Source of the DNA: Escherichia coli
GTDB taxonomy: Bacteria; Pseudomonadota; Gammaproteobacteria; Enterobacterales; Enterobacteriaceae
NCBI RefSeq assembly: GCF_003790525.1
Contig: NZ_CP033635.1
DNA: 64,000 nt
Strand: one strand, 5' to 3'
Of the stretch, positions 4,931 to 56,626 are shown one piece after another (the first letter of the stretch is position 1; every line of letters starts with the position of its first letter). The position numbers and the translations under genes were made by a program. The notes under the pieces are model-generated. The model did not search any database and had not been told where the DNA came from. It saw only the letters and a list, made by a program, of their open reading frames with translations.

Positions 4931-5149
4931 ATGAAACCACTTTTATCCGCAATTGCAGCTGCGCTTATTCTCTTTTCCACGCAGGGCATTGCGGAACAAA
5001 CCACGCAGCCGGTTGTTACTTCCTGTGCCAATGTCGTGGTTGTTCCCCCATCGCAGGAACAACCACCGTTTGATTTAAATCACATGGGTACTGGCAGTGA
5101 TAAGTCGGATGCGCTCGGCGTGCCCTATTATAATCAACACGCTATGTAG
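4931..5149 (+). CDS. marB: MarB periplasmic protein
   Basis: 72 aa with signal peptide, directly after marA. Confidence 0.85.
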   Translation: MKPLLSAIAAALILFSTQGIAEQTTQPVVTSCANVVVVPPSQEQPPFDLNHMGTGSDKSDALGVPYYNQHAM

Positions 5150-5205
5150 TTATTGTCAGGCTCTGATCACAGAGCCTGACATCTCCGTAATATCTTTTTG
5201 AAGTC

Positions 5206-8346
<3,141 letters not shown>

Positions 8347-13834: not shown

Positions 13835-13930
13835 ATGCTGGGTAATATGAATGTTTTTATGGCCGTACTGGGAATAATTTTATTTTCTGGTTTTCTGGCC
13901 GCGTATTTCAGCCACAAATGGGATGACTAA
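13835..13930 (+). CDS. mgtS: small membrane protein MgtS (YneM), 31 aa
   Basis: MLGNMNVFMAVLGIILFSGFLAAYFSHKWDD with RBS GGAGG; followed by a hairpin terminator. Confidence 0.8.
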   Translation: MLGNMNVFMAVLGIILFSGFLAAYFSHKWDD

Positions 13931-13985
13931 TGAACGGAGATAATCCCTCACCTAACCGGCCCCTTGTTACAACTGTGTACAAGGG

Positions 13986-14100
13986 GCCTGATTTTTATGA
14001 CGGCGAAAAAAAACCGCCAGTAAACCGGCGGTGAATGCTTGCATGGATAGATTTGTGTTTTGCTTTTACGCTAACAGGCATTTTCCTGCACTGATAACGG
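13986..14100 (-). ncRNA. mgrR: probable PhoP-regulated sRNA MgrR (boundaries approximate)
   Basis: minus-strand intrinsic terminator (CCGCCGGTTTACTGGCGG + U8, about 13986-14012) and upstream PhoP-box-like direct repeat GTTTAA-N5-GTTTAA (14137-14154); known locus between mgtS and dgcZ. Confidence 0.45.
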
Positions 14101-14148
14101 ATCGTTGACACAGTAGCATCAGTTTTCTCAATGAATGTTAAACGGAGC

Positions 14149-44157: not shown

Positions 44158-44322
44158 ATGGCAAAGCCGATCATCACGCTCAATGGCCTAAAAATCGTCA
44201 TTATGTTGGGAATGCTGGTCATTATTCTCTGCGGTATCCGTTTTGCCGCCGAGATCATCGTGCCGTTTATTCTCGCATTATTTATTGCTGTTATATATAA
44301 CTTATTTCGCTTAACTAATTGA
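44158..44322 (+). pseudogene. tqsA: tqsA 5' fragment (first ~45 codons, then foreign tail and stop) cut by the inserted element
   Basis: [45 protein letters not shown] then IYNLFRLTN*; the rest of the gene resumes at 55720. Confidence 0.85.
44286..44294 (+). repeat. left copy of 9-bp junction direct repeat TGCTGTTAT (candidate att core/overlap)
   Basis: identical 9-mer at 55720-55728; flanking bases differ on both sides. Confidence 0.6.
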
Positions 44323-44365
44323 TTTAATTAAATAATTTGCACTACAAAAAGTGCCAAAAATCGCA

Positions 44366-44391
44366 AATTAACTACACCATTAACTACACCG
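44366..44391 (+). repeat. left copy of 26-bp direct repeat AATTAACTACACCATTAACTACACCG (tandem 12-mer; candidate integrase arm-type sites)
   Basis: exact copy at 55567-55592; followed in both copies by a related ACAACGTG(G/A)AACAA motif. Confidence 0.6.
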
Positions 44392-45466
44392 TTCGGCGCA
44401 CTGTATGAAACAACGTGGAACAAATAGACACAAGCGGCAGGCTATACCGTTATCATTTTTCAGCTATCCGTCATGAAGCTGGTGGATGATCACGGATAAC
44501 CAGGCATCTACAGCGCCTTAAAAAGCTGAACCCGACAAACATTTCTGCTTATCGGGTCCGATCGCTCTTTCTACTCGTGGCAGATGAGTTTACTAGGAAG
44601 GGGGGAACATTGTATCAGGCTATCCCCTTTCTGTGCTGATTCGGCTGGTGAATGATCTACTTGGGGCACTACACTTTTCGGATAGTGCGGGTATCCGGTT
44701 TTCTGCCTCATCGAATTTTAAGCCTTCTGACGGCCTGTATATCATTTCCTGTGGAGTTGCCGCCCTGATAGCGAATACTGCGGCAGCATGTGATTTACCC
44801 CCCGTTCTGTTGATGTTTGATGTGGCTGGTTGATGTGCTGCCATGTTTTCCGCCAATGGTGGAAAAGCCCACCAGCGCAACGCAGGACGCATAAAACCAT
44901 TGCGATGACTCTGGACGCAAAACCACGTTTAACGATGTTTTGCACTGAACCAGAATACTGTTCGTTTTTGTCTCGATGTCCGTACGTATTACGTCCGCAC
45001 CTAATCCGGCATCATGCCCACCAGCGTAACGCATTTTTTTAATTTCGTGGCTGTGCGTCCACCAGCTACGCCGGAATGGGGTATTCCGTTTCAACGGAAC
45101 AGGTATGACGAACATAATCGCACCTTCTCCCGAAAACGGTGCGACCTGCATCATCGAAATGGTGATTCAGCTACTCGGCGATTTTCACCATTCAGAATCT
45201 GGCGGGTGAGTTATCCAGCTTCCACCAATGGGGGATTCTGGAACAATCAACGGGTTACGCCTTATCAGCAAAAAAGCACATCAACTGTAAAGGAAATCGT
45301 TATGGTTGCTGGTGGGCTGCGTCACCATCATGGTGATGATGCTGTCCAGTCAGCCGGAACGGTTGAACAGGGTGGCTATGGGTCACTCTGTTGTGCGTTA
45401 TTTGCGTGATCCTGGTACGGGGTGACTATCTTTCAGATAGTCGGTTGCCTGGTTACACGAAAAAAT

Positions 45467-45769
45467 TTACTTCCTGCGTTTATCCTGCTTTGTATGCCCG
45501 TGCTGAATGCCCCGCAGTGGATCTTCTTTTTTCAGGTCGATCCCCATGTCCGTTAGTGTTTTTGTGGCGGCGGTTCTTATGGCACAAATCAGGTCTCTTT
45601 CCGGTTCCCGGGTTATGGTTGCCTTCCGGATGCATGCCGTTCGTCGTTCCGTTACATACTGACGCGCTTCATCACTTGCCGCCTGTTTCAGTAACTCACC
45701 CCAGCGATTAGCCGCCCGTCGCCATAAACCTTTCGCTTCCAGTTCTTCCGCTTTGTCATCATGCACCAT
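45467..45769 (-). CDS. ANR-like small regulator, paralog 2 (start at MVHDD.. assumed)
   Basis: MVHDDKAEELEAKGLWRRAANRWGELL... parallels the protein at 49352-49624. Confidence 0.55.
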   Translation of the reverse strand: MVHDDKAEELEAKGLWRRAANRWGELLKQAASDEARQYVTERRTACIRKATITREPERDLICAIRTAATKTLTDMGIDLKKEDPLRGIQHGHTKQDKRRK

Positions 45770-45883
45770 AAGCATAATCCCATTGATACCTGTTAACTCT
45801 GAATGGTTGGTTTCTGTTCTTTTGATAATTTCCCGCATAGCTTATTGTATGACAGTACTGTCCCACAATAAGGAGTTGCACGC

Positions 45884-46174
45884 ATGAGAATGACTAGGCA
45901 CAAAAAACAGATTCTTGAACTCTACAAACCTGAGTATCGCGATTGGGTGCGGGTGGAGGCCGGAGATCCGCCTTTTGATGTTCGTGGTGTGACAGTGCTG
46001 CTCTATGGTTCCGAATATCGGCGATATCACATAGAGGCAACACGAAGGACGCTAAACGCTATGGTTCGTGATAAGTTGCTGGAGCGTGTGAAAGTCCGTG
46101 AGCCACGTTTTGATGTGCGTATTGGTGGCGATGGTGCGCATTGCACGGTAATCCGCTATGGCCTGGTAAGGTAA
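45884..46174 (+). CDS. hypothetical protein (96 aa), divergent from the ANR-like gene
   Basis: ORF with upstream AGGAG-like RBS; no recognisable family. Confidence 0.4.
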   Translation: MRMTRHKKQILELYKPEYRDWVRVEAGDPPFDVRGVTVLLYGSEYRRYHIEATRRTLNAMVRDKLLERVKVREPRFDVRIGGDGAHCTVIRYGLVR

Positions 46175-46276
46175 GCCATCGGGTAAATCAGATGATTAAA
46201 TCACCAGAATGTAAATTTACATTCTGCCAGCCACCAGCTACCCTCCTCAAAATTGAGGACCCTTTTTATCAACTGG

Positions 46277-46558
46277 TTACCGCCGCAACCGTTCCGGCTT
46301 CTTCCACTGATAAGTGTTTTTCGCGCTCTCCTGATACATCGCCACGCGTCGACGGTATGCCAGCAACTCTAGTACTCTGATTCGTATGTCGCGCATATCC
46401 ACGCCGTTAAGCTCAATACCATCACGGCGCATTACATCAGCAACAACACGCACATAATTTTCGGCGGTCACGCTGTCCGGCTGCGTGGCCTGTTCGTCAT
46501 GCTGCTGGCTGATTCCGGTAACGCGGCGGATTAATCCCAGTAGTTCGACTTCTGTCAT
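46277..46558 (-). CDS. hypothetical protein (93 aa) adjacent to cos copy A; start taken at internal Met
   Basis: MTEVELLGLIRRVTGI...; the longer ORF 46277..46756 would read through the cos site and is judged an artefact. Confidence 0.4.
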   Translation of the reverse strand: MTEVELLGLIRRVTGISQQHDEQATQPDSVTAENYVRVVADVMRRDGIELNGVDMRDIRIRVLELLAYRRRVAMYQESAKNTYQWKKPERLRR

Positions 46559-46570
46559 TGTGCCCCCATC

Positions 46571-46648
46571 GCTCTGATAGTCTGGTGTCGTCGGGTCCTT
46601 TCCGGCATGTGGACCCGTTACGGGGCGTCGACCTCGCGCGTTTTCACT
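46571..46648 (+). other. lambda-like cos site copy A (cosQ-cosN-left-arm homology); cosN-like 12-mer GGGCGTCGACCT at 46602-46613
   Basis: GGGTCCTTTCCGG...GTTACG GGGCGTCGACCT CGCGCGTTTTCACTATTTATGAAAATTTTTCGG closely matches the recalled lambda cos junction (lambda cosN GGGCGGCGACCT). Confidence 0.75.
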
Positions 46649-46664
46649 ATTTATGAAAATTTTT

Positions 46665-46775
46665 CGGGATCCATGTCCGGTTTCTCTGCAAGTTAACCAT
46701 ATGAAAAATATAAAAACATGCTTTCCATGAACCGGACATGCGCAAAAAACAGACACTAAAACCGGACATCGAACC
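46665..46775. repeat. three CCGGACAT motifs in alternating orientation next to cos copy A (candidate cosB-like terminase-docking sites)
   Basis: ATGTCCGG near 46671, CCGGACATG near 46729, CCGGACATC near 46763. Confidence 0.45.
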
Positions 46776-46837
46776 AGTTAACCGAAAGTGTGCACAAATC
46801 ACATTCATTGCTGCGAGTGATTAACAAGTTATCGGCT

Positions 46838-47272
46838 TTACTGTTCTGTATCGGCTGATTGCTCCATGCTGGCACGGCGAACGCTTACGGCATGACGCCA
46901 CCCAGCCAGAAAGCCAGCCATTTTATTTCGTGCCTTGCTCACATCTTCCGGTGAATAGCCGTAAATATGCAAACCTTCATCAAATCGATGTTCTGTTTCT
47001 TCACTGGAGTACTCGTCACGCTCAGATGAAAGCAGCCTCGCAAACATAATTTTTTCCAGCGCACTGGTTTCTACGTGATATCCGATGGTCTGAAGATGGC
47101 TTTTACCTGAATACCAAAGCAATGTATGCCCGATGTGATAACCGCCAGACTTTCCGCGATCCGCATTAAGATACGGCATCCCCTGTTTGGTCCATGCGCG
47201 AATAGTGGTTCTGTTAACCTTGAAATGTTCAGCTATTTCCTGCTGACTTACAAAACAAGCTTTATCAATCAT
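46838..47272 (-). CDS. Nu1-like small terminase-type DNA-binding protein (wHTH N-terminus, divergent C-terminus); possibly a packaging-redirection factor
   Basis: VSQQEIAEHFKVNRTTIRAWTKQGMPYL aligns with lambda Nu1 VNKKQLADIFGASIRTIQNWQEQGMPVL; 144 aa versus 181 aa for Nu1. Confidence 0.65.
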   Translation of the reverse strand: MIDKACFVSQQEIAEHFKVNRTTIRAWTKQGMPYLNADRGKSGGYHIGHTLLWYSGKSHLQTIGYHVETSALEKIMFARLLSSERDEYSSEETEHRFDEGLHIYGYSPEDVSKARNKMAGFLAGWRHAVSVRRASMEQSADTEQ

Positions 47273-47334
47273 AATGTTACCTTAACTGCATGGTTAAATA
47301 TCAATCAAGTGGTGGTGGTGTCACCTTCACGGAA

Positions 47335-47405
47335 AAACGTCATAAATAGCGAAAACGTGCGAGGTCGACGCCCCGTAACGGGTCCACATGCCGGAAAGGA
47401 CCCGC
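47335..47405 (-). other. lambda-like cos site copy B, inverted relative to copy A; cosN-like 12-mer (reverse complement) at 47362-47373
   Basis: reverse complement reads GGGTCCTTTCCGGCATGTGGACCCGTTACG GGGCGTCGACCT CGCACGTTTTCGCTATTTATGA; lies about 70 bp upstream of the terS-like start in the lambda cosN-to-Nu1 orientation. Confidence 0.7.
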
Positions 47406-47428
47406 AAAAAAAGCCGGATTTCTCCGGC
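47406..47428 (-). terminator. intrinsic terminator after the capsid/decoration genes
   Basis: minus strand GCCGGAGAAATCCGGC followed by U7. Confidence 0.65.
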
Positions 47429-47502
47429 CTTGTCTCAGATGGTTTTCAGTATGCGATAGATGTCGCCGTCATCGCCCTGGTTTGTGCCATCGTTCCCCCT
47501 GC

Positions 47503-47838
47503 TTATCGGGCCAGCGGCTGAACGGATACGCCGGAACCCGCAAAGGCGGCGCATTTTTTCGCATCGGTGTCGACGCTCTCAGGCCAGTTAACGGCGGCAA
47601 TATTGAATATCCCCGTCTTGTAACACTGTGCTGATTTCTGCTTTGACGTGTCCACAGGGTACGAGGTCAGATAAACAGCCTTGCCAGATTCCTTACCATC
47701 CCACGCCTTAAACTCGCCATTGTCTGCCAGCATCAGCGGGGTAAATTCCTGAATAACGCCAGCATCAGCGGCAAAATGTACCAGCGTCGTGGATACCTGT
47801 TGGCTGCCTGAAAATAACTCAATGTATGGAGCGTCCAT
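47503..47838 (-). CDS. lambda gpD-like head decoration protein
   Basis: TPLMLADNGEFKAWDG and AFAGSGVSV match lambda gpD TPLMLDTSSRKLVAWDG and AFAGTAISIV; 111 aa. Confidence 0.8.
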   Translation of the reverse strand: MDAPYIELFSGSQQVSTTLVHFAADAGVIQEFTPLMLADNGEFKAWDGKESGKAVYLTSYPVDTSKQKSAQCYKTGIFNIAAVNWPESVDTDAKKCAAFAGSGVSVQPLAR

Positions 47839-47849
47839 AGAATCCCCCG

Positions 47850-48905
47850 TTAAGCAATTTTGACGGTAACAAATTTGCGAATATCTGCCGGTACAGGCTG
47901 CGGTGCGCTGTGCGTCTGCACGTACTCAATCGCCGGATCGCCGTCCTCAATCCAGTTTTTCGGGTAGTACATGTTTTGCGTTGCGCCCGTTCTTACCGCT
48001 TCCTGATCCATAATCGCACCATATGCCACCAGCCCTTTATTGTTGGTGTTACCCAGGACCAGCAAATCAGGCTCAAGGAAATATTTTTCGGTCCCGTCGC
48101 TGTCAGTGTATTTGCCGGAATAGACGATAAGGGCCAGATCACCAAGATAGCCTTTAAAGCTCACCACTTCGCCCAGGTTTTTACAGGCCAGCTCGGCGGC
48201 GGATTCTGATCCACGGGAAAGATCGTACAGTTCACGGAATTTTTTAAAGCTGCGTAATGTGCGCCATACCTCACCGCCCATAATCATGACGTTGGCGGGG
48301 CAACCTGCCTGATCAGCATAAAGCTCGATGTCATAGATTGGGTCGTGCATGTCTTTATCCTGCTGGGACCATTTTTTACCACTGGCCTGCTGTATGATGC
48401 AGTTTTCCGGTATTTTCCAGTCGATTTCATAGCGTTCTATGCCTTCGCCCTCAATGATGTTTTTTCCGGTCGTTACCGCATTCACCGCCAGCCATTCCAC
48501 GCGCGCCTTAATGGCGTTTATCTGGCGGCGCATGTTGCCAGTAATCAGGCGCATACGGCGGTAAGTTGGATCGTTAAGCTGTGCCGGATCTTCTCCATCC
48601 ATGCGCATGATGGTCTTTGTTGGATCGATTTCGTGCTTTGGCTTCATGTAGCCTGGTTTAATCGTGCTGGTTTCGTACCCTTTATCGCGCTGGACCTGAC
48701 TACCCACCATAGGAGAACAGAACGCTGACATCGTAACCTCTTCAATGTCCAGGGTGTCCAGCATGATGTTTTGGGTGTTGAAGGTCGCCACGTTCGGGAA
48801 AAACAGCGTGGTAAACAGCGGACTAAATTTATATTCCGAAATATCCCCGCGATTCAGGTACGCGAAAAGCTGGTTAGTTGTAAGTGCCTTTGCTTTGCCT
48901 GTCAT
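47850..48905 (-). CDS. lambda gpE-like major capsid protein
   Basis: 351 aa; KPGYMKPKHEIDPTKT, DPTYRRMRLITGNMRR and YPKNWIEDGDPA...SAP...FVTVKIA align with lambda gpE along the whole length. Confidence 0.85.
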   Translation of the reverse strand: MTGKAKALTTNQLFAYLNRGDISEYKFSPLFTTLFFPNVATFNTQNIMLDTLDIEEVTMSAFCSPMVGSQVQRDKGYETSTIKPGYMKPKHEIDPTKTIMRMDGEDPAQLNDPTYRRMRLITGNMRRQINAIKARVEWLAVNAVTTGKNIIEGEGIERYEIDWKIPENCIIQQASGKKWSQQDKDMHDPIYDIELYADQAGCPANVMIMGGEVWRTLRSFKKFRELYDLSRGSESAAELACKNLGEVVSFKGYLGDLALIVYSGKYTDSDGTEKYFLEPDLLVLGNTNNKGLVAYGAIMDQEAVRTGATQNMYYPKNWIEDGDPAIEYVQTHSAPQPVPADIRKFVTVKIA

Positions 48906-49111
48906 TATTCACCTCCGTGAACCTGATTGATACCCAGCGCCGCACGCAAATAGGTGCGCACCTGCCAGCCTGTTGACGGCTCAACCATCGCCAGCGGATC
49001 AAGTCCTGCCGCAATGCCTGCTTTTACATTCTGCTGGTGGCGTTCCTTGAGCGCCTCCACGATGTCGGGGCTTATGTAGACCGTCACCCCGCCTTTTTTC
49101 TCTTCTGCCAT
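48905..49111 (-). CDS. hypothetical 68-aa protein translationally coupled (TAATG) to the capsid gene
   Basis: stop overlaps the gpE-like ATG; first gene of the capsid operon. Confidence 0.5.
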   Translation of the reverse strand: MAEEKKGGVTVYISPDIVEALKERHQQNVKAGIAAGLDPLAMVEPSTGWQVRTYLRAALGINQVHGGE

Positions 49112-49145
49112 AGTCAGAAATTCCTCTTTGACTTAAAAAATCATA

Positions 49146-49163
49146 ACTGGATGTTCATCCAGT
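49146..49163. promoter_or_regulatory. perfect palindrome ACTGGATG-TT-CATCCAGT upstream of the capsid operon (candidate operator/activator site)
   Basis: 8-bp arms with 2-bp spacer, about 35 bp upstream of the first operon ATG (49111). Confidence 0.4.
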
Positions 49164-49322
49164 CCTGATTATAATCATGATTGCATTTTGCGCAACAATA
49201 TTGAGTTACGTTGCAAATTATGAAATGATTATCCCGATCATGTGTGTCAGTTCACCATAAAAAACCTCGTATACAAAAGCCCCATAAGCCCCCTGTGACC
49301 TTATCGGGCTTTTTTTAGGCGT

Positions 49323-49344
49323 AAAAAAGCCGGATTGCTCCGGC
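49323..49344 (-). terminator. intrinsic terminator after the ANR-like gene (same stem family as 47406-47428)
   Basis: minus strand GCCGGAGCAATCCGGC followed by U6. Confidence 0.6.
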
Positions 49345-49351
49345 TGTGTGC

Positions 49352-49624
49352 TCACTTCTGCGGGTAGTTGCGCCATATTGCTTTGCCAATACCAGCTATC
49401 CCCATTTGTTTTTCAGTGCGATTAACTGACCTTTTCAGAGCGCCTAAATCATCCGGCGGCTCCGGTGGCCTCTGTGCCTTACGGATACATTCCGCGCGAC
49501 GCATTGCCACCTGTTCGCGCTCCTTGTCTGTCTCCACCAGCCTCATAACTTCACCCCATCGCGCCGCCGCCCTCCGGTAAAAGCCTTTTGCCTCGAGTTC
49601 CTCCGCTATGCGGTCATGTACCAT
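49352..49624 (-). CDS. ANR-like small regulator, paralog 1 (start at MVHDR.. assumed)
   Basis: MVHDRIAEELEAKGFYRRAAARWGEVM...; longer ORF start would overlap ssb. Confidence 0.55.
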   Translation of the reverse strand: MVHDRIAEELEAKGFYRRAAARWGEVMRLVETDKEREQVAMRRAECIRKAQRPPEPPDDLGALKRSVNRTEKQMGIAGIGKAIWRNYPQK

Positions 49625-49634
49625 CGTCACCCCC

Positions 49635-50045
49635 TCAGAACGGAATATCATCACCGTAAGGGTCATCGCCTCCCGCTGGTGGCTGATTACCCTGTGTGCC
49701 TGTGGTTTTGCGTCTGTTCCCGCCAGGACGTGCCGCACGGGCACTGATTACGCTGTCTGCAATAACCTGCCAGCCCTGCCGCGTTTCCCCGTTCTGTCCG
49801 GTCCACTGGCTGACCTGCATCGTGCCGGATACGCTGGCAACGTCGCCTTTTTGATGTTTAGCCAGAAAGTCGGCCTGTTTGCCAAATGCGATGACCGATA
49901 ACCATAACGTCGCCTGTCCGTCCTGTGCCTGGCCGCATGGTAAAGATACCGCCATACGCGCCAGCGTCATCGGTGTACCCTTACTGGTCTGTTTTACCTG
50001 CGGGTCGTCCACCAGCCGCCCGTAAGCTGCTATCTGTGCTGTCAT
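49635..50045 (-). CDS. single-stranded DNA-binding protein (SSB-like OB fold with acidic DDIPF tail)
   Basis: 136 aa; C-terminal ...DPYGDDIPF typical of SSB; Gly/Pro-rich linker. Confidence 0.75.
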   Translation of the reverse strand: MTAQIAAYGRLVDDPQVKQTSKGTPMTLARMAVSLPCGQAQDGQATLWLSVIAFGKQADFLAKHQKGDVASVSGTMQVSQWTGQNGETRQGWQVIADSVISARAARPGGNRRKTTGTQGNQPPAGGDDPYGDDIPF

Positions 50046-50284
50046 GCTGTCTGCTCTCCGGTTTTAACGTTGATGGTTGTTACCTGTTCTGCTTCGGCAA
50101 TATCCCGCTCTGTCAGCGTGGCAAAGTTTGCCGCCGTCGTTGTCATGAATGCGCTTATCAGTTCGGGATGTGCTTTCGCGTATCCTTCCCCTGTGTTGCG
50201 GTCGATGATTTTTATCGCCACCCTCAGCCAGTGCTCTGTAAGGTCAATGGCGCGGTGATCTGTCTTTTTGTGGCTTACCTTCAT
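50042..50284 (-). CDS. hypothetical protein (80 aa)
   Basis: ORF overlapping the ssb start (coupled); no recognisable family. Confidence 0.45.
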   Translation of the reverse strand: MKVSHKKTDHRAIDLTEHWLRVAIKIIDRNTGEGYAKAHPELISAFMTTTAANFATLTERDIAEAEQVTTINVKTGEQTA

Positions 50285-50287
50285 GAT

Positions 50288-50611
50288 TTACTCCAGAGTA
50301 CCGCTATTGCTGCTGTCGTTAACCGGATACCAGGCAAATACCATCGATTCACCACAGTGAACAAACTTCTTATCCGGCAGATAAAGGCACTCGCACATTC
50401 CCTCATCAGGACTATGCGGACTCATGCCCAGCTCACTGGTCAGCACGGGTAAGATTTCGCGGCAGGTGTTCCCCGCACCGAAATAATCAACCTCACAAAG
50501 CGCCCATGCAGCAATCGGGCTGTACCATTCCGTGCCGTCGTCGTCTTTGAACTTAGCCCACCAGCCAGGAAGGGCAGTTGATATGCTCAGTGTTTCAATT
50601 TCAGTGTTCAT
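50288..50611 (-). CDS. hypothetical protein (about 107 aa; start uncertain)
   Basis: ORF 50288..50656 with internal Met; Cys-rich, no recognisable family. Confidence 0.45.
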   Translation of the reverse strand: MNTEIETLSISTALPGWWAKFKDDDGTEWYSPIAAWALCEVDYFGAGNTCREILPVLTSELGMSPHSPDEGMCECLYLPDKKFVHCGESMVFAWYPVNDSSNSGTLE

Positions 50612-50659
50612 AAATTTACCTTCGGTATTTTGTCCTGCTGTTCGATTTTTATTCATTGC

Positions 50660-50870
50660 TCACCATCTCTCACTTTTACTACTCACTTTTTAAAGCGTCT
50701 CGCTTCGTCTCACTTGAGATTTTTGTGTTTTGTATGTGCATGTTTCATAAGTGTTTTTTCACTGCTCACTTTTGAGCATGTATACAGGTGAGAAAGTGAG
50801 TAATTGTGTTAATATTTTGTAAAAACCTCACCATTACTCACTTTTACTACTCACTTTTTACAGTGGTCCT
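50660..50870. repeat. iteron array (CTCACTT heptamers, two 24-bp direct repeats) - candidate replication origin of the element
   Basis: at least 6 direct and 2 inverted CTCACTT copies between 50669 and 50856; CTCACTTTTACTACTCACTTTTTA at 50669 and 50839; directly 3' of the primase-helicase gene. Confidence 0.6.
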
Positions 50871-52264
50871 ACATCATCACCATCAATGTAAATCACGGCG
50901 TCTTTTTCCAGTTTGGCTAACCATCGCCGCATATTTTTCACGTCATACCCAAGCCGTTTCATGTCATCACGTAACAGCGGGATCGTGCACTTGTCGCCGT
51001 TCTGTGTGCGTGAACGGATGCACCCCCATAGCGCGGTATGGTTTTCCGTCTTGTTGCCTGCCTCCTCGATGCGCTCCAGTTCAGCAGGGGCGCGGGGAAC
51101 GTCAATCACCACCATGGACACAATTTCTTCGCCATCTGTATCGGTGAACACCTCCACGCTTTTAAGGTCGTATGCACTCTCTTTTGGCTCCTCTGCGTCC
51201 TTCATCTTCGTACACGCCGCAACCAGTGCTGTAACGTCTGAATTTTCCCTGCTGATTCGGTACTCTGCATCAAGCGCGGCACGGAATGCACTGGAACCAC
51301 GCGCCCCCTTTGTTTCATCCTTGCCGGAATGGTGAACCACCAGCACCGTGGCCCCTGTGGCCTGCTTTATCGCGTCACACCCCTGGATAAATGCGCCCAT
51401 ATCACGGGAATCATTTTCATCATTCCCACCAAAGCAACGGGCCAGCGTGTCGATCACAATCAGCCGCACATTTTCGCCCGTTCTGCTCTTAACAAGTCCG
51501 GCAGTCCTGATAACCTGCTCCACATAGTCAGGCGATGCAGGGAAAACAGGCGCGTTAATGATGCACAAATCTGTAACCACCTTGTCGTGGGTTATCTCCC
51601 ACGCCTTAACGCGGCGTTTTACGCCCATGCTGCCTTCACCAGCGATATAGATAACCGCACCCTTACTTACCCTGCGGCCTCCCCATGCCATACCTGTGGC
51701 AACATGGCACGACCAGGAAATGGCGAGGAACGATTTATAAGAACCGCTGGCCCCGTAGGTGCTGCATAATGACTCAGCCGGAATAAGCCCCTTAATGACG
51801 TAGCTTTGCTGCGCATCGAATCCCTCAGAACCCCATGAGATGGGAAGTGTGATTTTTCGCTTTCCGCCATTCATGACCAGGCTTTCCCCTCTCTCCCATG
51901 TTTCCCGTAGTCGTGGTAGCTGGTCGCTCCAGTCCTCCAGCAGTTCGAAATTTTCAGAAAGTAGCCGCGCCTCCTGGACTCCGGCGATCGCCAGTTTTGT
52001 GGCAATGGTCAGCATCTGCATATCGTCCAGGTTTCCGGCGCGTATGACCTTTACCCTGTATCGTCCTTCATCAACAATCTGTAAGTTGTCCAGTTCGCTT
52101 AACTGATAACGGCCCAGATAAACCGGAGGGATGGGATCGCCTGCTTTTTTGGCCTGTGCAATCATGTAATGTTCTGCAAAGGAGTGAGCATTATCACCCG
52201 CAAAAATAACCGCCTCAGTGTGTTTATCTTTCGGTAACAGTTTTACGTTCGGTGCAAGTTTCAT
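50858..52264 (-). CDS. replication initiator: primase-associated N-domain + RecA-like/AAA helicase (pri-rep type)
   Basis: 468 aa; Walker A GASGSYKS, Walker B LIVIDTL, VLVVHHSGKD; C-terminal wH-like tail. Confidence 0.8.
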   Translation of the reverse strand: MKLAPNVKLLPKDKHTEAVIFAGDNAHSFAEHYMIAQAKKAGDPIPPVYLGRYQLSELDNLQIVDEGRYRVKVIRAGNLDDMQMLTIATKLAIAGVQEARLLSENFELLEDWSDQLPRLRETWERGESLVMNGGKRKITLPISWGSEGFDAQQSYVIKGLIPAESLCSTYGASGSYKSFLAISWSCHVATGMAWGGRRVSKGAVIYIAGEGSMGVKRRVKAWEITHDKVVTDLCIINAPVFPASPDYVEQVIRTAGLVKSRTGENVRLIVIDTLARCFGGNDENDSRDMGAFIQGCDAIKQATGATVLVVHHSGKDETKGARGSSAFRAALDAEYRISRENSDVTALVAACTKMKDAEEPKESAYDLKSVEVFTDTDGEEIVSMVVIDVPRAPAELERIEEAGNKTENHTALWGCIRSRTQNGDKCTIPLLRDDMKRLGYDVKNMRRWLAKLEKDAVIYIDGDDVGPL

Positions 52265-52548
52265 TTCTTACCCCCTGCGACCAGCATTTCACGGATTTTG
52301 CGGATATAACTTGCAGCACGTTTCTGATTAACGGCTTTACGATGGCCCACCAGCGTGAAATCACGCCGGAACTGATAAACAGGCATAACGCAGTCATATT
52401 CGTAGCCTTCACGGCGGTAAGTGATGCGACGTTCCTCCACGCCCTTAATCATTACCGTGCCGCCGTAGTTATCACGGAAAATATCGCCGGGACGGATTTC
52501 AGGACGAGCGGGGCCGCTGGCATTAACGCCAGAATTTTTATTTTTCAT
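52261..52548 (-). CDS. hypothetical protein (95 aa) translationally coupled to the replication gene
   Basis: stop overlaps the downstream start; basic protein. Confidence 0.45.
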   Translation of the reverse strand: MKNKNSGVNASGPARPEIRPGDIFRDNYGGTVMIKGVEERRITYRREGYEYDCVMPVYQFRRDFTLVGHRKAVNQKRAASYIRKIREMLVAGGKK

Positions 52549-52553
52549 GTTTT

Positions 52554-52781
52554 TTATTCTCCGGTGTGCTGTTCTTTATATCTGTCGTGAATTGCCATCA
52601 CTGTATTTAATTCATTAATAACAGCCGTTAATAGCGTACGCACGGCAGAAAACATCATTGAATCAGATTCATCGCCACTTTCCTGCACATCAATTAAATT
52701 AAGTAGTAATGCGTCCATTTCCTTTGCGCGGATTAATGCCTTTTCACAATGAAAAATAACACCAAAGGGTATTTTATTCAT
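52554..52781 (-). CDS. hypothetical protein (about 75 aa)
   Basis: ORF with internal Met start; first gene after the divergent operator region. Confidence 0.4.
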   Translation of the reverse strand: MNKIPFGVIFHCEKALIRAKEMDALLLNLIDVQESGDESDSMMFSAVRTLLTAVINELNTVMAIHDRYKEQHTGE

Positions 52782-53056
52782 GACTCCCCTCCTGACGGAT
52801 ACGGGCGGCGAATACAGCGACACAACCGGACGGGCAACGGTTACGCGCTTCGCGTTCCGTCCAGGCGGTCACGTGGATAATTTGAGATTCTCCGGCACTC
52901 AGTGCCAGAAAACGCCACACAAAGGCGGTTTGTGTGTGCGCTAGTCGTGGGGTATGCTGTGTTCCAGCCATAATCGTTACTCCTGTTAACGGTTTGGTTA
53001 GACGCCCTGCATGTGTTACAGCACTGCGGGGCGTTGTCTTTTTAACGGCTTTCGTG

Positions 53057-53104
53057 ATAGGGTGTACACCTATCAAGCAAAAACATAACGCTATAGGTGT
53101 ACAC
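53057..53104. promoter_or_regulatory. two TAGG(G)TGTACAC palindromic operator-like sites immediately upstream of the RHH gene
   Basis: ATAGGGTGTACACCTAT at 53057-53073 and ATAGGTGTACAC at 53093-53104, ending at the ATG. Confidence 0.6.
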
Positions 53105-53299
53105 ATGTCAACAGTTATTAAGCGAGATAAAAAACCAAAGGGAACAGGAAAAGCCCCCCCATTCCATATGCGAATAGCTCCAGAACTGAAAGAGCAGTTT
53201 GATAATGAGGCCAGCAATGATGGGGTAAGCCTAGCCAACTGGCTTAAAGAGTTGGGGCGCGCCGAACTAAAGCGACGCGGCATTGAACCTAAAGGCTGA
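53105..53299 (+). CDS. ribbon-helix-helix (CopG/Arc-like) DNA-binding protein, 64 aa
   Basis: beta-strand/helix pattern PFHMRIAPELKEQF...SLANWLKELGRAEL typical of RHH regulators/antitoxins. Confidence 0.6.
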   Translation: MSTVIKRDKKPKGTGKAPPFHMRIAPELKEQFDNEASNDGVSLANWLKELGRAELKRRGIEPKG

Positions 53300-53302
53300 T
53301 GT

Positions 53303-53428
53303 ATGACTGAAAAGCAGACCGATAACAAACTTTCTCTACCAGAGAATAAACCAGCAGGCTTCTTACCAAGAAAAATCCTTGATGAGATCAAACGCCGCCA
53401 GCGCCGCAAGGCCAAAGAGCAGGAATAG
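53303..53428 (+). CDS. small basic ORF (41 aa) immediately downstream of the RHH gene
   Basis: ATG 4 nt after the RHH stop; product MTEKQTDNKLSLPENKPAGFLPRKILDEIKRRQRRKAKEQE. Confidence 0.3.
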   Translation: MTEKQTDNKLSLPENKPAGFLPRKILDEIKRRQRRKAKEQE

Positions 53429-53752
53429 CCCACCAGCAAGCCAGCACACTGATCACATTGGCCACCGTGACAGGTGGCCTTTTCTTTGCCCGTTATCCGG
53501 CAATTGTGGCGCTTCGCCACACGGTTGATATAATTCCCCTGCTCAGATTCATTTTTTGCGCGGCAGGTAAATTGTTCAGAAAGGCGGCTCCTTATCGGGG
53601 CCGCTTTTTTTATGTCTGAAAAACCGCGATTTTGTTGTTTTTCAGTTTCACCAGGCCGAACGAAGCCCCGCCCATGTTCGGGCGTATATCCAGTCTTCAT
53701 GGTTAAATCTCTGTATTAGTGGATGGGTGGCGGCTGTGTGCCGCCAGTCTTT

Positions 53753-53941
53753 TTAGTGAACTGCCTCGCAGCTTTCCTTCCATGCCAGAACTTCGGATAA
53801 AGACCAGCCAACGGAACGACCGCCCAGCTTACGCCGTGATGGGAATTGTCCGGCCTTTTCCAGGCGGTAGCGGCATGAGCGGCTAAGGCCTGTTAGCTTT
53901 TCGCATTCTTTTTCACGTATAAAGCGATCAGTGCTTAACAC
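53753..53941 (-). CDS. alpA: AlpA/Vis-family phage regulatory protein (excisionase-like)
   Basis: 62 aa; ...IREKECEKLTGLSRSCRYRLEKAGQFPSRRKLGGRSVGW... typical AlpA fold signature. Confidence 0.8.
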   Translation of the reverse strand: MLSTDRFIREKECEKLTGLSRSCRYRLEKAGQFPSRRKLGGRSVGWSLSEVLAWKESCEAVH

Positions 53942-54315
53942 TATTGCCCCCTTTCGTTTCTTAAAGAGTTATTTCGTGTTCTATTGCGTTGGGATGTGTC
54001 TGATTGTGTCAGGGTGATTCAGAGTTGGCAAATGTTGGTGGCGGGTATTTTACAGAAACGGGGTGATTTTAATAAAAATCATTTTAATTCAGTATTATGC
54101 AAAGGCATAAAATCTCGTTTTATGCCTTTTTTCTCACTATTTAAAGCGTTATTCGCTAATGTATAAAAAACCAGTTGAGCATTAAAAATCAGCAACTTAT
54201 AAATCTGTATACTTTTTGACCTCTTGTTCGTGGTTGTTTCACGTTGTTGTGTATTGTTGCACGTTGTATCTGTGCACTTATCCAGTATGCGCATACTGAA
54301 AAAACACGAAAAAAA

Positions 54316-55566
54316 TTATTTTCTTCTGGCTACTGGTAGCGTGGTTACGTTTTCATGTGCTCCCGCCAGTATCTCCAACCGCTCCACCCACATATCCAGC
54401 GCATTGCGTTTCGCATCCAGATAACGGGAATGATTATAAACTCGCTGCATTCCTGGCATCTGGTGGCCTGTAAGCTGCTCCACGACGTGAGGATCCACGC
54501 CTAAATCGTTCAGCATCGTTGTAAAGGTGCGCCGGATGTCATGCAGTGACCATTGAGGGTGTTTTAGCCTCCTGTGCGCTAATCTGCCGTACTGCGATAC
54601 GCTGGCCTCCTGTTTCACTTCCCCCAGTAATAAGCCCGTGTGCCTGTTCTGCTCCACCAGCCGCGTGACGAACGGCAGGATCGCTTCCGGTATGGGCCGG
54701 AATATTGCGACCTTCGTTTTGCTGTGCTCCTTCGGAACGGTCCAGAGCATTTCCGTGAAATCCCACTCCCCGATCTCCGATAACCTCAGTTCTACCGTCC
54801 TGGCTCCGAAGACAATCAGGAGGCGGATTAGTGCGACGTAGTAAGGGGAAAATATTTTTTTGTCCAGTGCCTGCAATAATTCGCCCAGTTCTTTGGTGCT
54901 TAAGACACGTTCGCTTATATCCGGTTTTTTCCCAACGTCCGCCACGTTCAGATCGTCCAGAACGTTGCTGATTGCATAGCGCCGCCTCCGGCAAAACTTA
55001 AGCGCCTGTTTGCACGCCTGTAGCACGAATCCGGCAGTAACAGGCGTTCGCTTTGCCACCCGATCAAAACAGGCCAGCCAGTGCCGTAGCTCGCATTTAT
55101 CCAGCGGCATAGCACCAATGTGCTGTATTACGTGATTATTAAGTCGCCTTTTCAGGGCGATATAATCCACGCGGTTTTCCTTTACGTAAGACTCAAGCCA
55201 GTAGGTGAGCGCATCTCCAACCGTTACAGGCTTTAACGCTTCCTGCATGGTGTAATTCATCTCATGACGTGGATTTTTCCCCTCAGCCAGCCATGCGCGA
55301 CACTGGGCGGCTTTTTCCCTGGCTGATTTCAGGCTCAGATCAGGATAATTTCCCAGCTTAATACGTTCCGGTCGTGTCTCTCTTCCCGTTCCGGCCCTGT
55401 AAGTGAAATACCAGGTTAAAAGGCCGCTGGTTGAATGCCTGACGCTCAGATTTCCACCGTCATTAAGAAAGGCTGTTTTTTGGGCGGGTGTGCCGTTGAT
55501 TTTCCTTAGCTGTGTATCGCTCAGCTTGTTAAGTGCTCTGGTCATAATTTTGAATCCGGTCATCAC
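54316..55566 (-). CDS. int: tyrosine site-specific integrase (P4-type)
   Basis: 416 aa; C-terminal catalytic region with ...HDIRRTF... and ...LTGHQMPGMQRVYNH... (R..H..R..Y). Confidence 0.88.
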   Translation of the reverse strand: MMTGFKIMTRALNKLSDTQLRKINGTPAQKTAFLNDGGNLSVRHSTSGLLTWYFTYRAGTGRETRPERIKLGNYPDLSLKSAREKAAQCRAWLAEGKNPRHEMNYTMQEALKPVTVGDALTYWLESYVKENRVDYIALKRRLNNHVIQHIGAMPLDKCELRHWLACFDRVAKRTPVTAGFVLQACKQALKFCRRRRYAISNVLDDLNVADVGKKPDISERVLSTKELGELLQALDKKIFSPYYVALIRLLIVFGARTVELRLSEIGEWDFTEMLWTVPKEHSKTKVAIFRPIPEAILPFVTRLVEQNRHTGLLLGEVKQEASVSQYGRLAHRRLKHPQWSLHDIRRTFTTMLNDLGVDPHVVEQLTGHQMPGMQRVYNHSRYLDAKRNALDMWVERLEILAGAHENVTTLPVARRK

Positions 55567-55592
55567 AATTAACTACACCATTAACTACACCG
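55567..55592 (+). repeat. right copy of the 26-bp direct repeat AATTAACTACACCATTAACTACACCG
   Basis: exact copy of 44366-44391, directly upstream of the int start codon. Confidence 0.6.
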
Positions 55593-55719
55593 ATCGTTGC
55601 ACAAAGGGCTACAACGTGAAACAAGCTGGAACAAGAAAAATCACAAATTTGTTTATAATCAAAAACATAATGCACAACCTGAAACATTATGAAACGGCAA
55701 AAAACACTAATTGATAAAG

Positions 55720-56626
55720 TGCTGTTATTCTTAACCCGCTGGTGCAACACATGGTCCGCTGGCGAGTGCCGCGTGTACTGGCGGTGTCGATTTTGATGAC
55801 CATCATCGTGATGGCGATGGTGTTGCTGTTAGCTTATCTGGGTTCCGCGCTCAACGAGTTGACGCGGACGTTACCGCAATATCGCAACTCTATTATGACG
55901 CCGCTGCAAGCGATTGAACCGTTGTTGCAACGCGTAGGGATTGATGTCTCAGTTGACCAACTGGCGCATTACATTGATCCGAACGCGGCAATGACGTTGC
56001 TCACCAACTTATTGACGCAGTTATCTAATGCCATGTCATCAATCTTTTTATTGCTGCTGACGGTGCTGTTTATGTTGCTCGAAGTGCCACAATTGCCCGG
56101 AAAATTTCAGCAAATGATGGTGCGTCCGGTTGAAGGGATGGCGGCGATTCAGCGTGCGATTGACAGTGTGTCTCATTATCTGGTGCTGAAAACAGCCATC
56201 AGCATCATCACCGGCCTGGTCGCCTGGGCGATGCTCGCCGCACTCGATGTTCGCTTCGCTTTTGTCTGGGGATTGCTGGCCTTTGCGCTTAATTACATCC
56301 CTAATATTGGTTCAGTTCTCGCGGCAATCCCCCCTATCGCTCAGGTACTGGTGTTTAATGGCTTCTACGAAGCGTTGCTGGTGCTGGCGGGATATCTGCT
56401 AATTAATCTGGTCTTCGGCAATATTCTGGAGCCGCGCATCATGGGACGTGGGCTGGGGCTTTCCACATTGGTGGTATTTTTGTCGTTGATTTTTTGGGGA
56501 TGGTTGTTAGGACCGGTGGGTATGCTGCTTTCCGTGCCGTTAACAATTATTGTCAAAATTGCGCTTGAACAAACAACGGGAGGTCAAAGCATCGCCGTTC
56601 TGTTAAGCGATCTCAACAAAGAGTGA
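55720..56626 (+). pseudogene. tqsA: tqsA 3' fragment (about 300 codons) downstream of the inserted element
   Basis: in-frame continuation ...[26 protein letters not shown]... after a stop codon at 55715. Confidence 0.85.

Follow-up and report, generated by a model that had tools for sequence, protein, structure and literature searches.

The reading frame of tqsA is interrupted by an 11.4-kb element in the 64-kb stretch of DNA analysed here (the window), and the locus raises the question of what kind of element this is and whether it belongs to a described family. Judging from its sequence, it is very probably a phage-inducible chromosomal island (PICI) of the Gram-negative type, from the EcCICFT073/EcCI042 lineage, located at the published tqsA PICI site. 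EcCICFT073 is the model Gram-negative PICI (Fillol-Salom 2018 ISME J, 2019 Mol Cell), and its layout is the same throughout.

Insertion in tqsA and attachment sites

The element (44295-55728) splits tqsA and is bounded by the 9-bp direct repeat TGCTGTTAT. As in the first-pass annotation, the frame ends at 44294, after the residues ...LALFIAV, and picks up at 55720, in agreement with the ORF list and the intact tqsA of K-12. The suggested comparison with an uninterrupted tqsA was carried out with K-12, and gave both attB (...TTATTGCTGTTATTCTTAACCC...) and the core. Both parts of the gene are RefSeq pseudogenes in strains CM2 and 042, and tqsA split at this insertion point was found in about 4.6% of complete E. 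coli genomes (~252 of 5,426).

The core is the reverse complement of the published core ATAACAGCA, with which EcCI042 and EcCIK1516 (11.4 kb) are listed in tqsA (Table S1, Fillol-Salom et al. 2018, ISME J). EcCIK1516, likened here through its Table S1 entry, has the same site, core and size; EcCI042 (E. coli 042, FN554766 1832521-1843554) shares the site, the core, the junction sequences and the gene order. Insertion in a protein-coding gene had been regarded as an unrecognised pattern, which these two islands contradict. Most of the E. coli PICI sites in the same table are not tRNAs but lie in protein-coding genes or intergenic regions, and tqsA is in the list of genes whose integrity integrative elements control (PMC7192596). 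EcCICFT073 differs in its site, between ycfD (roxA) and phoQ with the core GGACATATT(T), despite a 94% identical Int. The repeats of the attL arm, which are probably Int arm-type and AlpA sites, are also present at both EcCICFT073 ends.

Gene content of the element

The features are listed in the table below. All genes are on the minus strand, as described earlier, apart from three small plus-strand ORFs.

Table. Features of the element and of the interrupted tqsA gene (positions in the window)
Feature	Position	Strand	Basis
tqsA 5' fragment (codons 1-45)	44158-44294	+	truncated by insertion; ORF list, K-12 comparison
attL core TGCTGTTAT	44286-44294		direct repeat of attR core
attL arm, AATTAACTACACC x2 and GAAACAACGTGGAACAA motif	44366-44434		69-nt direct repeat with 55567-55635
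Variable cargo module	44435-46250		second PerC gene, orf96, ORFs without family match
Second PerC-family gene	45467-45769	-	PHROG, RefSeq annotation
orf96	45884-46174	+	within cargo module
93-aa conserved PICI gene (orf93), c1505 homologue	46277-46558	-	phrog_1561; 78% to CFT073, 85% to 042 homologue
cos2: cosQ-like segment, cosN (46623-46634, GGGCGTCGACCT), phage-type cosB-like region	46592-46775	+	
rpp (redirecting phage packaging), RppA type, 144 aa	46838-47272	-	PDB 6HLK RppC, E=4.3e-32
cos1: cosN (47362-47373), PICI-specific cosB running towards rpp	47290-47404	-	
Head decoration homologue (lambda gpD/phage 21 SHP family)	47503-47838	-	phrog_49; PDB 1TD0, 1C5E
Major capsid homologue (lambda gpE family)	47850-48905	-	phrog_29; PDB matches
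68-aa conserved PICI gene (orf68), upstream of capsid gene	48905-49111	-	phrog_3255; 93% to CFT073 homologue
PerC-family regulator	49352-49624	-	phrog_994, phrog_10396; RefSeq name; Table S1
SSB	49635-50045	-	phrog_44; ~98% to CFT073 and 042 copies
Two small conserved ORFs (80 aa, 122 aa)	50042-50656	-	phrog_1231, phrog_27268
Candidate replication origin	50657-50863		~10 AGTGAG-type iterons, two clusters flanking AT-rich core
Replication initiator (Pri-Rep slot), RepA-type AAA_25 helicase allele	50858-52264	-	Pfam AAA_25 5.8e-42; phrog_2850
DUF4222 protein	52261-52548	-	phrog_285; RefSeq name
orf75	52554-52781	-	phrog_2196
Icd-like cell-division inhibitor	52774-52974	-	NCBIfam phage_ICD_like, 4.9e-18
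Control region	53058-53111		leftward sigma-70-like promoter TTGACA-18-TATGTT, two palindromes
Plus-strand regulator (64 aa, Arc/HicB-like), then 41-aa ORF	53105-53428	+	phrog_228; Pfam HicB
alpA	53753-53941	-	phrog_2790, 1.3e-17; 95% to EcCICFT073 AlpA
alpA upstream region	54003-54248	-	promoter-like site 54031-54003; repeats 54220-54248
Tyrosine integrase (P4-type domain layout)	54316-55545	-	phrog_1; Pfam Arm-DNA-bind_3, Phage_integrase
attR arm, AATTAACTACACC x2; ACAACGTGAAACAAGCTGGAACAAG	55567-55636		repeat analysis
attR core TGCTGTTAT	55720-55728		direct repeat of attL core
tqsA 3' part (codon 44 onward), without own start	55720-56626	+	ORF list, K-12 comparison

From end to end the gene order equals that of EcCICFT073 and EcCI042. 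The order shared with EcCICFT073 comprises int, alpA, an opposite-strand small regulator, icd-like, DUF4222, pri-rep, ori and SSB, followed by perC, orf68, capsid, decoration, cos1, rpp, cos2 and orf93. Identities to EcCICFT073 (tblastn) are 94% for Int, 95% for AlpA, 98% for SSB, 93% for orf68, 95% for the capsid protein, 96% for the decoration protein (c1500) and 96% for Rpp; those to EcCI042 are 93% for Int, 95% for AlpA, 99% for SSB and 96% each for the capsid protein, the decoration protein and Rpp.

The domain and PHROG matches confirm the P4-type integrase, AlpA, SSB and, together with PDB, the lambda-type capsid and decoration genes of the first-pass annotation. AlpA is the activator of the PICI cycle and possibly the excisionase as well; repeats of the type ACAACGTG(A/C)AACAA upstream of alpA recur in both att arms, and may be bound by AlpA or Int. 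The plus-strand regulator had been described as an RHH protein with its own operators. Two palindromes centred on GTGTACAC lie at 53097-53104 and 53061-53070, and are putative operators. The regulator (53105-53299), named 'HicB family antitoxin' in RefSeq, is probably an RHH protein, with weak matches to PHROG phrog_228 (Arc-like, 6.5e-6) and Pfam HicB (0.006). In EcCI042 and EcCICFT073 its slot is occupied by a YlcI/YnfO gene. A 308-aa ORF (52774-53700) was rejected as spurious.

The replication gene had been annotated as a primase/AAA-helicase with an iteron array downstream. The helicase and the iterons were found, but the label 'primase' is unconfirmed, because the protein shows the AAA_25 RepA-helicase domain alone and the Pfam domain search detected no primase domain. 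It belongs to the same RepA-helicase class as the EcCI042 allele (63% identity), whereas EcCICFT073 carries a DNA-primase-family allele, likeness to which is limited to the N-terminal 126 aa. The predicted origin lies directly 3' of the gene, a location already described for PICIs. Between origin and SSB, orf80 shares 88% identity with its CFT073 copy, and orf122 has no counterpart in the CFT073 or 042 elements.

The capsid protein matched the structures PDB 3BQW (E=5e-229) and lambda gpE (7VI9, E=4e-81). Purifying selection acts on capsid, SSB and int (dN/dS 0.05-0.2; 0.08-0.13 for the capsid gene), and the capsid and decoration homologues are retained through selection. In EcCICFT073, these two genes are not needed for transfer or interference. 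EcCICFT073 also has c1501, and in EcCI042 the decoration gene is separated from cos1 by a 137-aa gene that is missing here. The PerC-family genes are accessory regulators, perC being a published PICI accessory gene (Table S1, Fillol-Salom et al. 2018). The left-end cargo module (~1.8 kb), which includes the second perC, is absent from both EcCI042 and EcCICFT073; its remaining ORFs gave no matches in Pfam, NCBIfam or PADLOC.

Rpp and the two cos sites

The gene previously called Nu1-like is an rpp homologue instead, as indicated by its match to RppC, and its product is 96% identical to c1503/RppA of EcCICFT073. Residues 1-53, the DNA-binding domain, are identical to those of RppA, including the DNA-reading R21, T22, R25 and K29. 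Five of the six differences are grouped at residues 54-64, and could alter the choice of the TerS that is bound.

The two cos sites annotated earlier form a 78-nt inverted repeat around rpp (46592-46669 and 47327-47404, 91% complementary), an arrangement also found in EcCI042. Each holds GGGCGTCGACCT, with one mismatch to lambda cosN. For the cosN 12-mer alone, 3 of 100 shuffled sequences had at least two matches; the 78-nt repeat and the homology to published cos sites place the two sites beyond doubt. cos1 matches the published 'CFT073 cos.1', with 96.8% identity over 221 nt to the functionally tested EcCICFT073 cos1, and resembles lambdoid phage cos in its cosQ-cosN part only. cos2 shares 96% identity with EcCICFT073 cos2 and, over 179 nt, 94% with the cos of phage PhiR12_1, which is located between Rz and Nu1; the cosB-like region of cos2 has three ATGTCCGG/CCGGACAT repeats. 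Both cosN carry the change G6T relative to lambda, phi80 and EcCICFT073, whereas cosN of EcCI042 is canonical (GGGCGGCGACCT). The variant was also found in genuine lambdoid phage contigs, and therefore matching helpers exist.

Classification and predicted life cycle

SatelliteFinder names as the PICI core an AlpA-like regulator, a primase-replicase, a capsid-like gene and a TerS homologue, with the integrase core to all satellites; elements with all five PICI components are 97% in E. coli. The gene mix of the present element is that of these PICI core components as the text describes them. The first-pass annotation had seen a mix matching no described satellite family. This view fails on the synteny with EcCICFT073 and on 94-98% identity in Int, AlpA, SSB, capsid, decoration and Rpp; close identity to a characterised family, named beforehand as counting against novelty, was thus found with EcCICFT073/EcCI042. 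Two cos sites and transfer-dispensable capsid and decoration genes were already published for EcCICFT073; insertion site, gene set and cos sites are all previously described.

A defective lambdoid prophage that kept its integrase, some early genes, cos, E and D would account for the lambdoid character of the capsid, decoration and cosQ-cosN sequences, and RefSeq and PDB call the capsid a 'prophage' protein. This origin is extremely improbable, in line with the first-pass annotation: the 19 ORFs scanned with PHROG include no gene for tail, lysis, portal, protease or TerL functions, and no traces of immunity or Q genes were found. The att cores, int and alpA are all intact, and hundreds of genomes carry the ~11-kb layout with intact att, at several chromosomal sites (the capsid-to-rpp module in 611 of 5,426 complete genomes). 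Strong purifying selection acts on the capsid gene, and the P4-type Int layout, AlpA, RepA-type replicon with iterons and Rpp are satellite, not lambdoid, traits. The integrase layout, the AlpA/Vis-like protein and the Icd-like gene also recall a P4-like satellite dependent on a P2-type helper, but the chance of this is practically negligible, as PHROG scans matched no ORF to sid, psu, delta, epsilon or the alpha primase, the cos sites are of lambda type rather than P2/P4 type, and the 2018 paper expressly sets such PICIs apart from P4. It is also very improbable that the element is a cf-PICI, building its own small capsids and taking only tails from the helper. It does encode major capsid and decoration proteins under purifying selection, but the defining portal, protease/scaffold, head-tail adaptor/connector and TerL genes are all absent, and EcCICFT073 DNA goes into phage-sized capsids, and its transfer does not require the capsid and decoration genes.

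The life cycle of a PICI of this lineage was demonstrated experimentally in EcCICFT073 (PMC6092414, PMC6739421), and we infer it for the present element from 94-98% protein identity and the identical layout. The quiescent element would reside in the chromosome until an induced or infecting lambdoid helper turns on alpA. Int would then recombine the 9-bp cores, excising the element and restoring tqsA, and the RepA-type initiator would replicate the circle into concatemers, using the iteron origin that directly follows its gene. Rpp would bind the helper small terminase (lambda/phi80 Nu1 type), blocking recognition of phage cosB and forming with TerS a hybrid DNA-binding unit that reads the PICI cosB at cos1. 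Helper TerL, capsids and tails would then be diverted from phage DNA to the packaging of PICI DNA, with about four units (4 x 11.4 = 45.7 kb) per phage-sized capsid. Points that weigh against a full carry-over from EcCICFT073 are the different replication allele and plus-strand regulator, the G6T change, which may affect cosN cutting, and the cluster of Rpp differences.

The island may be of the right family and still be an inactive, fixed copy whose mobilisation was lost in this strain, which we regard as rather unlikely. No helper prophage was found within the 64-kb window, both cosN carry G6T, and the tqsA-site relative of strain O42 (EcCIO42) showed no transfer when the resident prophages were induced with mitomycin C (Table 1 of the published work), the sole donor condition reported for it. 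Against this, the core ORFs are all full length, the two att cores are identical, and lambdoid phages sharing the cosN variant provide matching helpers. Copies with 99% identity in unrelated chicken and wild-bird isolates also suggest recent spread.

TerS-encoding E. coli PICIs (such as EcCIRM12579-type in O55:H7 and EcCIIHE3034) share the backbone, with its capsid, decoration and RepA-type replication genes, and hold a Nu1-type terS where rpp is found here. In an IMG/VR contig, the PICI capsid and decoration genes precede cos and a Nu1 with 100% identity to the Nu1 of phage PhiR12_1. SaPIbov5 and other cos-type SaPIs, which are Gram-positive PICIs, also have a helper cos and a capsid homologue (Ccm), according to the 2018 paper. 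Ccm leads to small capsids, whereas EcCICFT073-type elements use phage-sized capsids and an Rpp that redirects TerS; the two groups have no sequence relationship. Points that may be new are the near identity of cos2 to a PhiR12-type lambdoid cos, the G-to-T change in both cosN and the rarity of the left-end cargo module, which was found in only three of the 5,426 complete genomes.

An EcCICFT073-type island in tqsA

The window covers an E. coli chromosome segment with the gene neighbourhood asr, ydgD, mdtIJ, tqsA and pntBA, in which tqsA is split by an element of 11,434 bp, a length that begins with the first base beyond the attL core and includes the attR core. From its start at 44158, tqsA has an undisturbed frame as far as ...LALFIAV at 44294, and the frame picks up again at 55720. 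Alignment to the intact tqsA of K-12 gave attB as ...TTATTGCTGTTATTCTTAACCC..., attL as ...TTATTGCTGTTAT joined to ATATAAC..., and attR as ...AAAGTGCTGTTAT joined to TCTTAACCC..., with the 9-bp crossover core TGCTGTTAT at 44286-44294 and 55720-55728. With the core placed there, the split of tqsA at 44294 and 55720 proposed in the first-pass annotation is correct to within the core. The same core is the published attC core of EcCI042 and EcCIK1516, two phage-inducible chromosomal islands (PICIs). In Table S1 of PMC6092414, tqsA is the attachment gene of both EcCI042 (11 kb) and EcCIK1516 (11.4 kb), and their core is given as ATAACAGCA, the same 9 bp as in the window read on the opposite strand. 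The tqsA junctions of the relative in E. coli 042 are exactly those of the element. In the TIGER study tqsA is among the genes with integrity controlled by integrative elements (PMC7192596); the AI-2 exporter gene is inactivated by the element until excision.

Comparison with the CFT073 region showed that the gene order of EcCICFT073, the experimentally characterised model Gram-negative PICI, is kept throughout: int, alpA, a small regulator on the opposite strand, an icd-like gene, small ORFs, DUF4222, pri-rep, SSB, perC, a 68-aa ORF, capsid, decoration, rpp, and a 93-aa ORF. The coordinates of the main features are collected in the table. Identities to EcCICFT073 in tblastn were 94% for Int, 95% for AlpA, 98% for SSB, 93% for orf68, 95% for the capsid, 96% for the decoration protein, 96% for Rpp, and 78% for orf93. 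The 137-aa homologue of c1501 is missing from the element.

Features of the element in tqsA, with coordinates in the window
Feature	Coordinates	Strand	Remark
Left-end cargo module	44435-46250
cos2 (cosN)	46623-46634	+	downstream of rpp, inverted; 96% identical to EcCICFT073 cos2
rpp	46838-47272	-
cos1 (cosN)	47362-47373	-	upstream of rpp; matches published 'CFT073 cos.1', 96.8% over 221 nt
Decoration homologue	47503-47838	-	gpD/SHP family
Major capsid homologue	47850-48905	-	lambda-gpE family
Putative origin	50657-50863		iteron array
Icd-like gene	52774-52974	-	hidden under a spurious 308-aa ORF
Control region	53058-53111		two palindromes
Sigma-70-like promoter	53111 to 53082	-	TTGACA-18-TATGTT
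alpA	53753-53941	-	AlpA
int	54316-55545	-	tyrosine integrase, P4-type arm-binding domain

The size of the element agrees with the description of PICIs by Fillol-Salom in 2018, as islands of about 10-15 kb without tail or lysis genes. The SatelliteFinder definition of a PICI comprises an AlpA-like regulator, a primase-replicase, a capsid-like gene, a TerS homologue and an integrase, the latter being core to all satellites, and for elements with all five core components a figure of 97% in E. coli is given (PMC10085698). With the component list taken from the text of that paper (de Sousa 2023), all five core functions of PICI Type A were matched in the element by PHROG, Pfam and PDB. The same comparisons revealed none of the tail, holin, portal or head-tail adaptor/connector functions that this definition forbids.

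Three other origins were rejected. The lambdoid part of the element consists of the E-like and D-like genes and cos only, and CI/Cro immunity, Q, a lysis cassette, terminase, portal and tail were not found. PHROG comparison of all 19 ORFs gave no match to tail, lysis, portal, protease or TerL functions, as the first-pass annotation had read from the sequence. Together with the satellite-specific genes, the conservation of an 11-kb unit at several att sites and purifying selection, this argues against a defective lambdoid prophage and for a phage satellite, the choice made before. Among satellites, a cf-PICI would carry a portal, protease/scaffold, head-tail adaptor and connector, and TerL, all of which are missing from the 19 ORFs according to PHROG. 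The P4-like alternative has the lambda-type rather than P2-type cos against it, and no PHROG match to Sid, Psu, Delta, Epsilon or the alpha primase was obtained.

The element is thus of an already known kind at a published site, and at most a new mosaic variant, set apart by its rare cargo, its cosN variant and the allele of its regulator. The first-pass annotation had found in it no described satellite family. This novelty claim fails because of the close identity to a characterised family, a finding that the annotation itself had named as decisive against it. EcCICFT073 has already been described with capsid and decoration genes and without portal, protease and TerL, with two cos sites and a Nu1-like gene (PMC6092414, PMC6739421). 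In genome annotation the locus should bear the label of an EcCI-type PICI of the Rpp/cos class in tqsA; 'cryptic prophage' and 'new satellite family' would both be wrong. What makes these islands relevant is their interference with lambdoid phages, including Stx-type phages, their high-frequency spread, and their PerC regulators linked to LEE virulence control. Leads of possible use are limited to the phage-identical cos2, the strongly conserved genes for capsid and decoration, and the 94%-identical integrases with different cores.

Among 5,426 complete E. coli genomes, about 252 (4.6%) have the match to a 241-nt probe across attB split between two places, and 611 contain the capsid-to-rpp module. 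Copies of the whole element at 99% were found in three genomes, from chicken and black kites. In strain 2 HS-C (NZ_CP038180.1, 2229679-2230127) the probe matched as two joined pieces across 449 bp, which would imply an insertion of about 200 bp at or near the tqsA attB region.

Integration, replication and regulatory genes

As in other PICIs, int and alpA lie at one end and transcription is nearly unidirectional, the rest of the element being on the minus strand except for three small ORFs. Comparisons with PHROG, Pfam, NCBIfam and PDB confirmed the P4-type tyrosine integrase, AlpA and SSB recognised from the sequence. Int is 94% identical to the EcCICFT073 integrase (4931-6160 of comparison locus L004) and has arm-type repeats in common with it; however, the 9-bp core is TGCTGTTAT in tqsA for the element and GGACATATT at ycfD-phoQ for EcCICFT073. 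Seventeen Int residues are common to both tqsA-site integrases and different in the EcCICFT073 integrase, and the integrases of the element and EcCICFT073 are a natural pair for the study of core-specificity switching. Both att arms contain the motif ACAACGTG(A/G)AACAA, and it recurs upstream of the alpA promoter (44406-44423, 54220-54248, 55611-55636). Either Int or AlpA, the latter in the roles of excision factor and autoactivator, is a candidate to bind these motifs.

The replication gene, previously described as a primase/helicase, encodes an AAA helicase of the RepA type (AAA_25), and no primase domain was detected in it. The protein is 63% identical to the Pri-Rep allele of EcCI042, whereas the EcCICFT073 allele is of the primase type and unlike it; four Pri-Rep alleles are described in PICIs (PMC6092414). 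The downstream iteron array was also borne out. This putative origin lies directly 3' of the replication gene, and its AT-rich core has a cluster of AGTGAG-type iterons on either side, about ten in all. Like other PICIs of this type, the element would have its own initiator and origin.

A small regulator is present on the plus strand as proposed, and its assignment as a ribbon-helix-helix protein is weak (PHROG Arc-like, 6.5e-6; Pfam HicB, 0.006). The slot holds this Arc/HicB-like gene in the element and a YlcI/YnfO gene in EcCICFT073 and EcCI042. Its start codon overlaps the -35 hexamer of the leftward promoter, which is the best match to a sigma-70 promoter within the element. The control region contains one GTGTACAC palindrome in the promoter spacer and a second one (GGTGTACACC, centred on GTGTACAC) just downstream. 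Such a layout would suit a small repressor of the leftward operon. Read-through from alpA would be antisense to the Arc/HicB-like gene. The 308-aa ORF at 52774-53700 was rejected as spurious, overlapping the real icd-like gene and running antisense to the plus-strand regulator.

The left-end cargo module of about 1.8 kb includes a second PerC-family gene and ORFs without a family, and was found in only three of those 5,426 genomes. Its 96-aa plus-strand ORF has an internal repeat. About 70 nt of the cargo (window positions ~44519-44589) resemble phage P1 rlfB with 86% identity. PADLOC gave no anti-phage defence match for the cargo and the small ORFs, and orf96, orf106, orf93 and orf122 matched no family in NCBIfam or Pfam. 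Our guess is that the published accessory gene 'rdgR' corresponds to c1505/orf93. The Rfam scan of the whole window had a sole match, distant from the element and unrelated to it: the Hfq-binding sRNA STnc560 (RF01407) at 13924-14137 on the minus strand, full-length with 280 bits.

Capsid genes, rpp and cos sites

The lambda-type capsid and decoration genes were verified with PHROG, Pfam, NCBIfam and PDB. The capsid protein is nearly identical to PDB 3BQW, deposited as 'putative capsid protein of prophage', which we take to be the product of E. coli CFT073 c1499. Both genes are under purifying selection, with dN/dS of 0.08-0.13 for the capsid and 0.15-0.40 for the decoration gene. No phenotype is known for these genes in EcCICFT073 (PMC6092414, PMC6739421), and of 29 Gram-negative PICIs used as reference, 21 have a capsid gene (PMC10111431). 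Since the genes are selected for and yet have no known phenotype in EcCICFT073, their role is a family-wide question rather than a locus-specific one.

The gene described as Nu1-like encodes a small winged-helix protein that does resemble the Nu1 DNA-binding domain, but its identity is Rpp, the redirecting phage packaging protein. It matches the crystal-structure entry of RppC (6HLK/6HN7) with E=4e-32. Similar to EcCICFT073, the element thus combines Rpp with a PICI-specific cos, Rpp being 96% identical to RppA (EcCICFT073 c1503) and cos1 96.8% identical to the tested EcCICFT073 cos1. Residues 1-53 are identical to RppA, including the published DNA-reading R21, T22, R25 and K29. Five of the six differences fall in residues 54-64 (S54Y, R59H, E61Q, A62T and R64G); they may represent adaptation to a different helper TerS, on counts too small for statistics. 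Likewise, the dN/dS of 1.6 for rpp is statistically not interpretable because it derives from about six non-synonymous changes and about one synonymous change.

Two cos sites, as noted in the first-pass annotation, flank rpp as a 78-nt inverted repeat with 91% complementarity (46592-46669 and 47327-47404). Both cosN copies read GGGCGTCGACCT, with G6T relative to lambda, phi80, EcCICFT073 and EcCI042. The same G6T cosN was found in genuine lambdoid phage contigs with the layout Rz-cos-Nu1-TerL (loci L008, L011-L014); therefore helpers with matching cohesive ends exist. The segment on the cosQ side is identical between cos1 and cos2 in the element and in EcCI042, and different in EcCICFT073, which points to gene conversion between the two inverted sites.

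The cos2 site with about 150 nt downstream (46592-46775) is 94% identical to the genuine cos of phage PhiR12_1 (L006, 3501-3679). In that phage the cos region sits between Rz and Nu1, with its end about 50 bp upstream of Nu1. The common stretch contains three ATGTCCGG/CCGGACAT repeats resembling cosB R sites. The N-terminal DNA-binding part of the PhiR12_1 Nu1 has no similarity to the lambda Nu1 sequence used for comparison. Because of this PhiR12_1-like cos with cosB-like repeats and a Nu1 domain unlike that of lambda, cos2 may directly mimic the cos of a second helper class. It is possible, though on balance doubtful, that the two inverted sites are entry points for two helper classes, with cos1 used via Rpp with a TerS of the lambda/phi80 type, and cos2, as a near-exact copy of the whole PhiR12-type cos with cosQ, cosN and cosB-like repeats, cut and packaged directly by PhiR12-type phages without Rpp. 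If true, this would explain the family-wide conservation of cos2, which is dispensable or counter-productive with lambda and phi80, and would contradict the published absence of a recognisable phage cosB in these islands, reported for EcCICFT073 in the 2018 and 2019 papers (PMC6092414, PMC6739421). The phage-identical cos2 is the sole lead that might deserve a small experiment.

Related PICIs possess a Nu1-type terS in the slot of rpp (L018, 2606-3148, from O55:H7 TB182A). In an IMG/VR viral contig (L015, 1705-4614), the PICI capsid and decoration genes are followed by cos and by a Nu1 with 100% identity to the PhiR12_1 protein, with a TerL fragment after terS at the contig end. From these two loci, the packaging slot appears to behave as a swappable cassette.

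Proposed life cycle

Helper induction, high-frequency transfer and interference with the helper were shown for EcCICFT073 only, and the steps proposed here are transferred to the element by homology from those experiments (PMC6092414, PMC6739421). A lambdoid helper would turn on alpA, Int would excise the element, and the replication protein would amplify it from the adjoining origin. Rpp would bind the small terminase of the helper and thereby block recognition of the phage cosB, and together the two proteins would make up a hybrid DNA-binding unit whose target is the PICI cosB of cos1. Concatemers of the PICI would then be packaged into phage-sized heads by the TerL, capsids and tails of the helper.

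The present copy is a putative mobile element. For the O42 element, no transfer was seen once the resident prophages had been induced with mitomycin C (PMC6092414). In the ORF list of the 64 kb, annotated for the element only, no prophage-sized block that could be a helper was seen. Four units of the element amount to 45.7 kb, which is about 94% of the lambda genome.
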